A DNA stretch of 64,000 nucleotides from Thermoguttaceae bacterium (GTDB taxonomy: Bacteria > Planctomycetota > Planctomycetia > Pirellulales > Thermoguttaceae): positions 229 through 64,228 of the forward strand of contig JBOFSQ010000111.1 in NCBI GenBank assembly GCA_051651625.1. The letters are read 5' to 3'. Shown piece after piece: positions 13,545 through 57,925 of this stretch. Numbering within the stretch: the stretch's first letter is position 1; every line of letters starts with the position of its first letter. Made by a program: the position numbers and the translations under genes. The notes under the pieces were generated by a model. The model ran no database searches, was not told where the DNA came from, and saw only the letters and a list, made by a program, of their open reading frames with translations.

Positions 13545-14126
13545 ATGACCATATCAAAACCGAGTTCGTATTTGTCGTTTCCGTTTGACGTGAAGGTCGA
13601 TTTTGCGACGGGGGCGATTGATTGTCCCGACAACGTATACGACCGTCGTCTCTCGCAGATGGCGGCGATGTACGAAGACCGTGAAGCCGTCGCTGCGCTT
13701 GCTGCGACTGATCCAGTCATCTACCGCGTTTACGAGCGGCAGCTTCCCGCGCTGGCAGGTGAGCTTCAGTGGTGTATGAGTGTGACGTTCCCCGGAAAGG
13801 TCGGACGCGAATACTACATGACCAAGGGGCATTTTCACGCCGTCCGCGAGACTGCCGAGATTTATCTTTGCGTTGCGGGCGAAGGGATGATGATGATGGA
13901 GACCGAAAGCGGCCAGAGCGACATAAAATTGATGACGCCCAATACTTGTGTCTACGTCCCCGCGTTTTGGGCGCACCGTTCGATCAACACCGGTACGACG
14001 CCGCTGATTTCGTTCTGCGTCTATCCGGGCCACGCGGGGCACGACTACGGTTCAATCGAGACTCGCGGTTTCTCAAGACGTGTCGTCGATATTGGCGGCA
14101 AACCGACAGTGATTGATGGCCGGTGA
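13545..14126 (+). CDS. pgiA: Cupin-type glucose-6-phosphate isomerase (archaeal cPGI family)
   Basis: Near-collinear with my recollection of Pyrococcus cPGI: FDVKVDF..., PGKVGREYYMTKGHFHA, YVPAFWAHRSINTG, YPGHAGHDYGSIE. Confidence 0.85.
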   Translation: MTISKPSSYLSFPFDVKVDFATGAIDCPDNVYDRRLSQMAAMYEDREAVAALAATDPVIYRVYERQLPALAGELQWCMSVTFPGKVGREYYMTKGHFHAVRETAEIYLCVAGEGMMMMETESGQSDIKLMTPNTCVYVPAFWAHRSINTGTTPLISFCVYPGHAGHDYGSIETRGFSRRVVDIGGKPTVIDGR

Positions 14127-14127
14127 A

Positions 14128-14237
14128 GTAGTTTGAGTTCGGCATAGCCGAACCCTCCAGTTAACAACGCCGTTGGCGTTTGGAGGGTTCGGCTATGCCG
14201 AACCGCTGTACGGGTGCAACTTTTCGAACAGGTCTAC
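14128..14237 (-). repeat. Family A element, copy A3 (reverse orientation)
   Basis: Starts 1-2 nt after the pgiA TGA (TGAAGTAGTTTGAGTTCGG...) and ends ...CGAACAGGTCTAC. Confidence 0.9.
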
Positions 14238-36358: not shown

Positions 36359-37546
36359 TTACGGCAATGAGACGGACACACCATCATTCACTCGCGCCAG
36401 AGCGGATAACACGCTGCCCGGTGTTGTGTTGCTGATAGCACGCACTGAACCATCACCTATCGCAAAATTGCAAACGCCTGCGTGATAACTACCAAACCCA
36501 AAACCAAAGTGGGCATCGCCATTTCCGCGAAAATCATTTGGACCACGGGCAATTGTTGGACCGTTACGATGAATGGCACGCGCCACATTGAACCTCGCAC
36601 CAACATTCCACCATGCCTGCGTCAGATAGCTCCCGTCAATATCCCAACCAGCGGCATTGTATGGCGGTGAACCAACATTTTCGCTCTGATAAAAGTCAAC
36701 GACGGTCATCCCACTAACACTACCACCACCGAGCATATCTTGTGGAATATGCTTTTCCCCAACAATCAACTGATTCGACGTACCGTCTCGCCACCAAGCC
36801 ATCGTGTCGCGCGGCTCCCATTCGGCTCCAGTCAGCCCTTTTTCCCAATCGTCGTACTCGTTTGATCCGGGGCCAGCATACCGAAATGGTCCCTCAATTT
36901 CTTGTGGATAACCGAGCTGCCAGAGCCATCCCCAAGCACTACTATTCGCGGCGTCACCGTTTGTACGAATGTAGACACAGGCATAGTCGCTCAACGGGCC
37001 GTTACCATATATCCACTGTCCTGTGTCGGGGGCCGCACTGGTTGTTGCTACACCTGAACGCCGTGTCGGACACTTGTAGATTGACACGCTACCAAGCCCT
37101 TTGCGTTGTTCTTCTTTCAGTGAAGCCCACCATTTTGTATCATAGCTGCACGGCACTGTCCCTGAAATATCCTTTTCCATCTGAATCGGCAGTAGCAAAT
37201 CATAGAGAGCCTGCTGTTCAATGAACGGGTAGAGAAGTGGCCAAAACGACATCTTCTCTGGCCAAGTCATAATTGGAGGAAGTCCACGGCGAGCATCTTC
37301 AAAGTTATGGACAGCTAAAGCCACTTGTTTCAGATGGTTGGTACACTGCATCCGTCTTGCCGCTTCGCGGGCAGCTTGGACGGCGGGCAAGAGTAGGGCA
37401 ACGAGAACGCCAATAATGGCGATCACTACCAACAGTTCGACGAGAGTGAAGCCGCGAGAGCGACATCGAGAAGTAGTGGGAACAGCGGCGTCAGAGAAGA
37501 CGCCAAAGACATCACAGAGTTTGCCAACTCTGCCCCCCCCCCCCAT
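36359..37546 (-). CDS. DUF1559 / H-X9-DG protein with a prepilin-type N-terminal cleavage/methylation domain
   Basis: [37 protein letters not shown]; C-terminal [14 protein letters not shown] (H-X9-DG). The candidate ATG at 37546 is followed directly by the G12 tract. The ORF stays open up to 37708. Confidence 0.85.
37533..37544 (-). repeat. Homopolymer G12 (C12 on the + strand) right after a candidate start codon
   Basis: Minus strand reads TGTTAAGATGGGGGGGGGGGGCAGAG. Confidence 0.95.
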
Positions 37547-37788
37547 CTTAACATTCGGCGAGCCACAAGCAGCGCACGCCGCATCGAGCATCGTTTCCAG
37601 TCCACAAACCAAAATCATCAAAGTCTTGTACATAGTTGGTCTCCTTTCAAAAAGCGAAACACGAGAAAACGTCTGGCCACAAACAGTAGCAACCAGCAAA
37701 CACGACAAGCGGAATCGTAGCGAAAGAAATGTTAGGCGTCAATGGGGAGTGGGGAAGAAAACGTTGGTGAGGCGGGGAACGTGTGTCT

Positions 37789-54844: not shown

Positions 54845-55930
54845 CTACGGCAACGACACACTCTCGCCATCAGATACGTCTGAAAGTGGGCAGAGAATAG
54901 TGTCCATTGGCGTGGTATTACTCACGGATCGCACGGCACCGTCACCCAGCAAAAAATTACAAACACCAGCATGACTGCTACCAAAGCCATAATTATGGAA
55001 AGGGTTATTCGGAGACAAATAATCATTTGGTCCCTTGGCAAGACGTTGCCCGTCCCCCATTTGACGTACCGCTGATGGTGCCCCCCAACCAGCGACGGTA
55101 AAAATACTGCAATCTCCTTGCGTGTGAAGACCAGCGTTTCCATCACACTTACCGATTACGTCTTGCGGCACATGCTTTTCACCTACCACGAGTTGGTTAC
55201 TCGAACCATCTTTCCACCACGACATCTTGTCGCGTGGCTTGTTGTTATTTGTGTTCGTACCCATAAGCCGGGCAACACGCAACGGACCAAAATGCAGGTC
55301 GGCCATTCCGCCATCGCCTGAGTTGAAACAATAAATCCAGTCGAGATTCCCAGCAGGTAGGTTGCGTCGCCGTACAATACACGCATAATCACCGCAAGGT
55401 CCAATTGGCATCTCTGGCAAGTCTGTCGTCGTTGTCATCTGTACTCCGGTGCGCCGCGATGGACACTTGAAGATGGGGACGGAACCATACGCCTTGCGGT
55501 CTGTATCGTCTAACAGATTGAGCCACCAACTATAGTAACGCGCCCTAGCGAGGTTGGTACCAGTGGTAACGCTTGGGTCTTGCAATGCGCTTTCTTGCCC
55601 TTTAGCATAGATGCGGTCGTATGTGGCATTTTGTTCCATATACGGCATCAGCAACACGAAAAAACCCGGGCGTGACTCGTGAATCACAACCGGTGGCAAC
55701 ATCCCGCCGGACGAGTCGATGAAGTTGTGTACACCCAACCCAAACTGTTTGAGATTGTTGGTACAGGTCATTCGTCTTGCCGCTTCGCGTGCGGCTTGCA
55801 CTGCGGGAAGCAAAAGCGCAACCAACACGCCGATGATCGCAATGACCACCAGCAATTCTACTAGCGTGAACCCAGACGATTTTTTTGTGTTATACAGCAT
55901 TGTAAAGTCTCCTTGTAAAAGAAGTGTCAT
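54845..55930 (-). CDS. DUF1559 / H-X9-DG prepilin-type protein
   Basis: [39 protein letters not shown]-terminal [14 protein letters not shown]. The likely start MLYNTKK at 55900 gives a normal 10-aa leader. Confidence 0.85.
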
Positions 55931-56217: not shown

Positions 56218-57498
56218 CTACGGCGCAACCGATTCTCCGCCATTGATCGAACCAAGCGCACCCCAAACCCCAAATTGTGATGCACCACTTGTGACGGGTT
56301 TCGCCGCATTTGTGGCTGCTCCCGTCGGATCGTTTGAATAACCCGTCGTGATTGCACTGATTGTATCAGAGACAAACTGCACGGAGCCATCAACTCGTGC
56401 CACGCAAACTCCGCCAGAGTGTTCGCTGGAAGCCGACATCGCCGCGCGAAAACTACAGAAGTCTATTAGTGGGGCGGCAGCGGTTCCTTGGAGAGTGCAA
56501 CTAGGAGAATTGGGAGGCAAGAGCGTGGTGAAACTCGTGAAGACAGGGCGTCCGTCAGACCACCGCTTGCCAGTCAACCGCCCTCGGTCATCTGCCGGGA
56601 CACCTGCCGCAAGATACTCCTTACGCCCATCAATGGTGCTCATGCACGCATATACCGGCAGGCTGGTCACCGCCGTTGTAGCCATGCCGGGAATTTCTGC
56701 CCACGCACCTTTGATGGGAAACGTGTTGCGCTTCGTCTTCGCGTTGCCCGCAACACACTTTTCCGAGAAGATGATTGTATTACTTGTGCCATCAACGACC
56801 GACGCCATTGAGTTCCAACGTGGTCCGGGGGAGAATACACCACGCGGATTGTCTGCGACAGTAGCAGCACTTGGCCAGTCACCAAGCGAATAGGCATACG
56901 AAATGGCTGCCCCTTCTTTCGCGTTTCGATCTGATGGGCACTGCACGGTTAGAATTTCCGCGCCGAATGGTTCCAAGTGTGGTTCCGGATCAAGACCTGC
57001 ATTCGCACCCGATACCGCCAAGTCGTAAATGGCTTGCTGTTCTATGAACGGTGTCAACATCATGAATGGGCTGTAGTAGGAGATGGCCCGCGGCACAGGT
57101 GGAGTGCCAACCATAATCGTCGGATGCTTGATGTAACCATTTCCGGCCGGAAACGAACCGTTGGTGTCGTGGTAGTTTTGTGCGGCGAGTGCGAGTTGTT
57201 TGAGTTGGTTTGTACACGTCATTCTTCTTGCAGCTTCTCGTGCGGCTTGCACGGCGGGGAGAAGGAGCGCGACGAGTACGCCGATGATCGCGATGACGAC
57301 CAGCAGTTCGACGAGAGTGAATGCGCGGCGGAGAAGAGAGCCACCGTTACGCAGATCGACACTGTGCAGATCGAAGTCGAGAGAACGACTTCGTGAGGAA
57401 GAGAAGGGTGTTTGGACGCGAAGACTTCGCGTTTTACGCGAGCTGCCCCCCCCCCCCCAGCTTAACAAACTTAACAGCAATCGCTGACAGGTGGTCAA
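56218..57498 (-). CDS. DUF1559 / H-X9-DG prepilin-type protein with a long leader containing a G13 tract
   Basis: [40 protein letters not shown]-terminal [14 protein letters not shown]. There is no in-frame ATG between the G13 tract and the pilin motif, so translation must start upstream of the tract. Confidence 0.8.
57446..57458 (-). repeat. Homopolymer G13 (C13 on the + strand) inside the 5' coding leader
   Basis: Minus strand reads TGTTAAGCTGGGGGGGGGGGGGCAGCT. Confidence 0.95.
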
Positions 57499-57925
57499 CT
57501 ATCGCAACCCAGAGACACCAGCAAAACCGGTCCATACGTTCCTCCTCAAGAAATGGAAGTAAAGGGTTCACCAAGAAAACAACTGAGCGTGCGCACCGAG
57601 CAAACACGTCGCGTGTGAGTTTAGCCCCGCAGCGAGGATGTGTCAAGAGGGAAGTGAAAAGTTTTGTGAAGCCGTTCGCGGATTTGCTGCCGTTTTGGCG
57701 TCCTTTCCTCAATCCCGTAGGGATTTCGTTATGGTAGAAAACGAGTGATAATGCGTTCCAAACCCCGCTAGGGGTTCCGTTATGGTAGAGAACGTGTGCC
57801 GACCATAACGCAACTCCTACGGAGTTGTTTTCGTTACACGTCGCGTGCGTGCTACCATAACGGAATGCCTAACGGCATTCGAGAACGGAATAAAACCGTG
57901 AACGCTTACAGTTTTTTGAAACCGT

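Follow-up and report, generated by a model that had tools for sequence, protein, structure and literature searches.

Phase variation by homopolymer slippage is textbook knowledge for a few host-adapted pathogens (Neisseria, Haemophilus, Campylobacter and Helicobacter). In Neisseria, a poly-G tract in the signal-peptide sequence of pilC mediates phase variation by frameshift (PMC13017665). For Campylobacter jejuni and Helicobacter, two reports describe poly-G/C contingency loci whose lengths differ both between and within populations (PMC4965091, PMC2823697). At the G4 sequence of Neisseria pilE, the adjoining promoter of the gar sRNA is needed for the diversity-generating event (PMC3547852, PMC13463697), and in Helicobacter pylori the C/U-rich sRNA RepG targets a length-variable G repeat in the mRNA leader of tlpB (PMC8295292). 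A search for literature linking homopolymer phase variation to DUF1559, Planctomycetes or Thermoguttaceae found none.

The stretch of DNA analyzed here (64,000 nucleotides from a Thermoguttaceae bacterium, referred to as the window) encodes three DUF1559 paralogues, all with an N_methyl and a DUF1559 domain. One of the genes contains a run of 13 G (G13; 57446-57458, minus strand), which we interpret, with a probability of about 0.75, as a slipped-strand contingency locus in the leader of a prepilin-type DUF1559 gene. Slipped-strand mispairing at replication would add G residues to the tract or remove them, and each such change would shift the DUF1559 body into or out of frame with promoter, Shine-Dalgarno sequence (SD) and ATG. 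Loss of one G from G13 would turn the gene ON, with the leader MDRF...RRA↓FTLVELL. Since the Gly run sits in the leader that prepilin peptidase would remove, changes among the in-frame lengths G9, G12 and G15 should be harmless and cost nothing. We infer that the tract switches in the organism of the window, reversibly and at high frequency.

On the minus strand, the locus reads GCTGTTAAGTT TGTTAAGCT GGGGGGGGGGGGG CAGCTCGCGTAAAACGCG. The flank motif TGTTAAGCT (57459-57467), a variant of the family consensus TGTTAA(A/G)NT, abuts the tract, a second, tandem copy of it, TGTTAAGTT (57468-57476), lies directly before, and CAGCT follows the tract directly. Upstream duplication of the motif also occurs in related loci (e.g. 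L044, L183, L232, L233). An ATG with good signals (57533-57535) opens a frame of 33 codons (residue 60 of the ORF 57434-57712); it is preceded at 5 nt by the Shine-Dalgarno sequence GAGGAGG (57541-57547) and farther upstream by a predicted sigma-70-type promoter, TTGACA-17-TAAACT (57618-57646), which matches at 10 of 12 positions. Directly 3′ of the tract lies the hairpin TCGCG-TAAAA-CGCGA (57427-57441). The mature pseudopilin-like body, from the F of RRA↓FTLVELL to the stop codon, occupies 56218-57321 (PF07963 N_methyl, 7e-06; PF07596 DUF1559, 1e-41), and the product combines an N-terminal methylation/cleavage motif, a hydrophobic helix and a DUF1559 domain, as in prepilin-type proteins. Gly is the usual residue before a prepilin cleavage site. 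At position -1 of the predicted site (57321, minus strand) the G13 gene has Ala and both other paralogues have Gly; Ala at -1 is also frequent among related loci.

Runs of at least 9 G or C occur in the 64-kb window at two places only, the G13 tract and a G12 tract in a second paralogue, against an average of 0.03 matches in dinucleotide-preserving shuffles of the window. Beyond these two cassettes the window holds no further copy of TGTTAARNTG. Re-reading the minus strand reproduced the original prediction with respect to the coordinates of G13 and to the likeness of its flank to that of G12 (TGTTAAGCT and TGTTAAGAT).

In the assembled sequence, the G13 gene is OFF. The frame opened by the ATG at 57535 crosses the tract and ends three codons past it, at a TAA (57436-57434) that is part of the hairpin, and the frame of the DUF1559 body is open only back to a TAG (57501-57499), with TTG codons as its only starts and no SD. 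By base count, a tract of 9, 12 or 15 G would join the ATG frame to the body; 13 does not. The tract thus sits where changes by a single G, such as that from G13 to G12, would switch translation of the body on or off. The original prediction held that no ATG separates G13 from FTLVELL in the body frame, and reading the codons confirmed this, with GTG and TTG absent from that interval too. The conclusion attached to it, that the tract must be translated, is correct for in-frame lengths but not for G13, where the start that bears the signals lies in another frame. The gene caller began this gene at a TTG. In practical terms, gene callers truncate or mis-start genes of this kind.

The paralogue with the G12 tract (37533-37544, minus strand; in frame) is ON, being continuous from its own SD (AAGGAG, 37646-37641) and ATG (37633-37631) through the body, with 424 aa encoded from the ATG at 37633 (gene at 36359-37633, minus strand). 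Its flank TGTTAAGAT occupies 37545-37553 (minus strand), CAGAG follows the tract, and a hairpin, CAGAGTT-GGCA-AACTCTG, lies directly 3′ of G12 (37515-37532, minus strand). The third DUF1559 gene (54845-55930, minus strand; 54845-55900 as delimited here), which served for comparison, has the short, tract-free leader originally described: the leader precedes FTLVELL directly and has no G run. The two tract genes, said in the original prediction to have otherwise unrelated leaders, proved to have more in common, namely similar -35 hexamers (TTGACA in the G13 gene, TTGACG in the G12 gene) and a CGTGTTTGCT block early in the 5′ UTR (57599-57608 and 37695-37704, both minus strand). Their 5′ regions are thus paralogous beyond the cassette. 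The window's two cassettes are therefore probably paralogous copies, as judged from these common elements, and not independent acquisitions, and the two copies alone are little proof against chance.

The G13 tract would be one member of a large switch family in gut-associated Planctomycetota (Thermoguttaceae-like MAGs) with a common 9-nt flank. Across 185,579 species genomes (one genome per species), TGTTAAGNT followed by at least 11 G was found at 47 loci. Planctomycetota gut MAGs, whose sources include termite guts and goat rectum, account for 45 of these, and one termite-gut MAG alone has at least 16. This distribution supports the original view that flank and homopolymer do not occur together by chance and form a phase-variation cassette. 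The proposed motif search, followed by inspection of the genes downstream, showed that at least 28 of 50 analyzed cassettes, the window's two included, precede an FTLVELL pilin motif, and most cassettes lie 6-15 codons past an SD and ATG and 4-8 codons ahead of (A/G)↓FTLVELL. A flank-blind scan (at least 11 G, a gap of 6-24 nt, then FTLVE) identified at least 120 further loci, and every match listed came from a gut Thermoguttaceae or Planctomycetaceae MAG. When the search was relaxed to AAGNT followed by at least 11 G in all phyla, the matches listed from outside Planctomycetota had random upstream bases and were often poly-G contig ends, which indicates that the flank is lineage-specific. Metagenome scans gave 0 matches, and three matches on phage contigs were found without the gene context.

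Other genes that follow the cassette encode a GT4 glycosyltransferase, a PATR/PEP-CTERM protein of 1635 aa and secreted proteins of unknown kind. With pseudopilins, a giant PATR/PEP-CTERM surface protein and the GT4 enzyme, the cassette genes have the content typical of phasomes. For the G13 gene of the window, an orthologue search gave none above 40% identity; the nearest protein in a large protein collection, 67% identical, belongs to a Thermoguttaceae MAG, and its leader as called is short. Neither the closest homologue nor any of three window proteins had an exact match in protein look-ups. No sequencing runs were found for either window locus or for a termite-MAG locus, and no independent assembly of the window's organism was found.

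Two structural variants of the cassette were seen in relatives. The DUF1559 gene beside a G12 cassette gene at L282:4344-4390 (same site in L283-L288) has a short cassette, TGGTAAAAT-G6-TAAACG, with the leader MKLGKMGGKRG↓F, unchanged in seven assemblies; the TGGTAAAAT-G6 form is possibly a precursor or a collapsed state of the long tract. In about ten related loci (e.g. L161, L173, L228, L240, L243, L251), hexamers resembling direct repeats bracket the tract, as in TAAACT-Gn-TAAACT and TAAAAT-G13-TAAAAT. These could reflect K-L codons on both sides or the mode of tract origin.

Tract lengths in the family range from 9 to 18 with a mode of 12, and both window tracts exceed the length of about 8 G/C that is regarded as hypermutable. 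Of the 95 loci whose SD start is recognizable, 49 are in frame and 46 are not; G12 is ON in 34 of 48 loci and G11 is OFF in 24 of 33. The start codons behind these counts were called automatically and with some errors, and at least one locus scored as OFF proves ON when read from a different ATG.

These figures bear on the concern that the OFF state of the window's G13 gene is a homopolymer consensus error, the true tract being G12 or another in-frame length. Runs of 12-13 G are difficult on every sequencing platform, and contigs end or break at many of the cassette loci. The other long ORFs read in the window are intact, however, so that the assembly does not have the appearance of one riddled with indels, and the out-of-frame loci make up about half of the 95 and come from many projects. 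Moreover, the alleles of relatives differ by 2-3 G with the alternatives preferentially in frame (G9, G12), a preference that random error would not produce. A miscount is in our estimation unlikely; it would bear on the state of this one allele and would leave room for the tract to be a mutable repeat.

Length variation was traced in relatives, with differences of 1-3 G among orthologues and among samples of one strain, in support of the original expectation that tract lengths are not fixed. The run data concern a goat-gut relative and consist of assembler contigs, in which minority alleles are hidden, and homopolymer assembly errors could mimic part of the variation between assemblies. At L200 (goat-gut MAG RGIG3054), the MAG has G11, which is out of frame, run X2 has G12 and runs X3 and X4 have G9, both of the latter lengths being in frame; in run X1 the contig ends inside the tract. 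Apart from the tract, the L200 sequences differ over 336 nt at no more than one position in X1, X2 and X4 and at four in X3. At L161, G11 stands against G12 in seven other independent assemblies, 99.4% identical over 7.1 kb, in a look-up that could find the in-frame product only; the species of L161 was absent from the goat-gut runs searched. At L015, the MAG and run X1 have G14, three runs from other studies have G11, and the contigs break at the tract in three of four runs (X2-X4). Orthologue pairs differ as well (L167 G11 and L206 G13; L177 G11 and L190 G12; L187 G14 and L193 G12). The length was constant at L198 and L178 in four of four goat-gut samples and at L217 in three of four. Over the DUF1559 N-terminal coding block (L198:3720-3840 and L178:3490-3590), summed contig depth in four gut metagenomes was 30-60x that of the flanks, which fits dozens of paralogues per genome and accounts for the assembly breaks there.

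The general form of the flank is TGTTAA(A>>G)NT. Exact TGTTAA was found within about 30 nt upstream of the tract in 66 of 103 flank-blind loci, compared with 1 of 103 in a control stretch further upstream, and in 42 loci it lies exactly 9 nt from the first G. AARNT stands directly before the tract in 55 of the 103. At the four unselected positions preceding it, these 55 loci have T in 51, G in 54, T in 49 and T in 45, which gives the consensus (A)A-TGTTAAA-N-T; the base ahead of the final T is A, C or T, never G. The form TGTTAAG..CAG of the original prediction is accordingly upheld for the flank itself, while its AAG is a minority variant of TGTTAAANT and the trailing CAG reduces to a weak preference for (C/T)A(A/G). 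The site L200:5298 is TGGTAAACT in the MAG reference and the canonical TGTTAAACT in contigs from runs X1-X5, X8 and X9 (the X12 contig ends before the site).

The flank and G run could simply be an inherited leader peptide, ...N-V-K-(L/M)-G-G-G-G..., with the out-of-frame copies as pseudogenes and no switch at all. Indeed, translation from the SD and ATG gives N-V-K-(L/M)-G4 for the motif at about 70% of loci, the variants GTT/GTC and AAA/AAG look synonymous, a neighboring paralogue has the same leader with only G6, and the 5′ regions of both window genes are paralogous. A peptide would nevertheless leave synonymous positions free, and they are frozen: the four Gly codons are all GGG in more than 100 loci, and the T at -9, which is the third position of 13 different codons (AAT, TTT, TCT, TAT, CCT, ATT, TGT and others), is found in 51 of the 55 loci, compared with a T frequency of 43% in the NNY codons of these genes (P about 1e-14). 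GTT occurs 45 times in 55 where 41% would be expected (P about 5e-10), and AAA 53 times in 55 where 71% would be; these statistics treat the loci as independent despite their relatedness. At least six loci with canonical SD and ATG use a second frame, in which the motif becomes (M/L)-L-(K/N)-W-G4, and these loci are in frame at G13 and not at G12. Near-identical strains differ by non-multiples of three, and the cassette stands ahead of a cytoplasmic glycosyltransferase as well. We therefore give an inherited leader without a switch very little credence, and the codon-position statistics together with the use in two frames lead us to reject a peptide-only account of the flank. Because synonymous positions are frozen and the motif is read in two frames, the flank is constrained at the level of DNA or RNA. 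The positions just outside the 9-mer are close to random, so common descent alone is not enough to explain so sharp a boundary.

An out-of-frame allele could also be expressed by programmed recoding, if RNA polymerase slipped or ribosomes shifted frame on the G run with the aid of a downstream hairpin, in which case the tract would be a recoding site and there would be no switch at the DNA level. Long homopolymers cause transcriptional slippage. The G run is slippery in every frame, and small hairpins lie directly 3′ of both window tracts. Most family members, on the other hand, have 10-20 nt from tract to FTLVE without a conserved structure, and the conserved stimulatory structure 5-9 nt past the slippery sequence that marks programmed frameshifting was found neither in the window nor in the family. 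Overall, the two window tract regions fold no better than shuffles (z = +0.8 and +0.4), and an Rfam search gave no match for them. DNA lengths, moreover, vary between strains and peak at an in-frame length, and a fixed recoding site would do neither. We regard recoding as improbable and retain slippage of the tract during replication as the preferred reading.

What the flank might do is a separate matter. That TGTTAA(A/G)NT is a cis-acting DNA or RNA element acting together with the G run, and not a leader remnant or chance, is a tentative proposal that we consider doubtful. The pattern of conservation would be fitted best by an extended -10-like sigma-70 site with a G-rich discriminator. Both TGTTAAGCT and the consensus TGTTAAANT match the extended -10 pattern TGnTAnnnT at TG and at hexamer positions A2 and T6, as a pattern match only; the corresponding bases are T-9 in 51, G-8 in 54, and A-5 and T-1 in all 55 loci, the last two having been selection criteria. 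RNA polymerase held at the 5′ edge of the tract, with the duplex opened there, could raise or regulate slippage, or couple switching to transcription. Across the cassettes there is no -35 signal ahead of the flank and no start codon downstream. Outside them, 1.03 Mb of related loci showed no enrichment of the flank motif, which speaks against a general promoter. The G13 gene's own promoter has TAAACT as its -10 element.

Alternatively, flank and G run could be the common target of one small RNA controlling all switchable genes. A search of the window for such a partner gave a single match outside the cassettes, the intergenic CCCTCCAGTTAACA (14153-14166, plus strand) just past an ORF ending at 14126, which would pair, with one bulge, to the flank and the beginning of the G run. 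Chance alone would give an estimated three or so such matches, and this one is probably meaningless.

Should slippage at these tracts operate as proposed, a mechanism otherwise associated with a few pathogens would operate at large scale in uncultured planctomycetes from termite and ruminant guts, concentrated on the enigmatic and massively expanded family of DUF1559 pseudopilins. This concentration suggests that the DUF1559 proteins lie exposed, that no single one is indispensable and that selection on them fluctuates, with phages, host immunity or substrates as possible agents. No counterpart of the nucleotide-conserved flank is known from the classical systems. A flank that controls the switch would add a new layer of regulation to mutational bet-hedging, and if its role in cis is true, the cassette, more than a bare repeat, would be a portable module for phase variation with its own control element.

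Of the known systems, the promoter of gar at pilE resembles the present locus in that a promoter element stands beside a G-rich sequence near a pilin gene, the flank described here fitting, by its pattern, an extended -10 element. That system, however, works by RecA-dependent gene conversion and has interrupted G3 runs, whereas slippage is proposed here and the element lies inside the coding leader. The likeness to RepG is that flank and G run would make a common target of 20 nt, with the difference that the repeat in our case lies in coding sequence and shifts the frame. With gar and RepG as precedents, a function of the flank in cis is conceivable. In pilC1 and pilC2 of Neisseria gonorrhoeae and N. 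meningitidis, a poly-G tract likewise lies in the leader of a pilus-related gene that is turned ON and OFF by frameshift (PMC13017665). Here, the phylum is Planctomycetota, the genes are DUF1559 pseudopilin-like and present in dozens of copies, many loci per genome have one and the same 9-nt flank, and switching is predicted from sequence. To our knowledge, no nucleotide-conserved flank of such a kind has been described for pilC. The phasome of Campylobacter and Helicobacter is similar: in these likewise gut-associated bacteria, each genome has dozens of G/C tracts, about 8-13 nt long, in the 5′ portions of genes for surface structures and glycosyltransferases. We know of no report that these tracts share a flanking motif; in the planctomycetes, in contrast, AARNT precedes the tract in 55 of 103 flank-blind loci, with the bases of TGTT before it in 45-54 of 55. 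The G13 locus would thus most likely represent a slipped-strand contingency switch of a known kind, new in its phylum and in its conserved flank.
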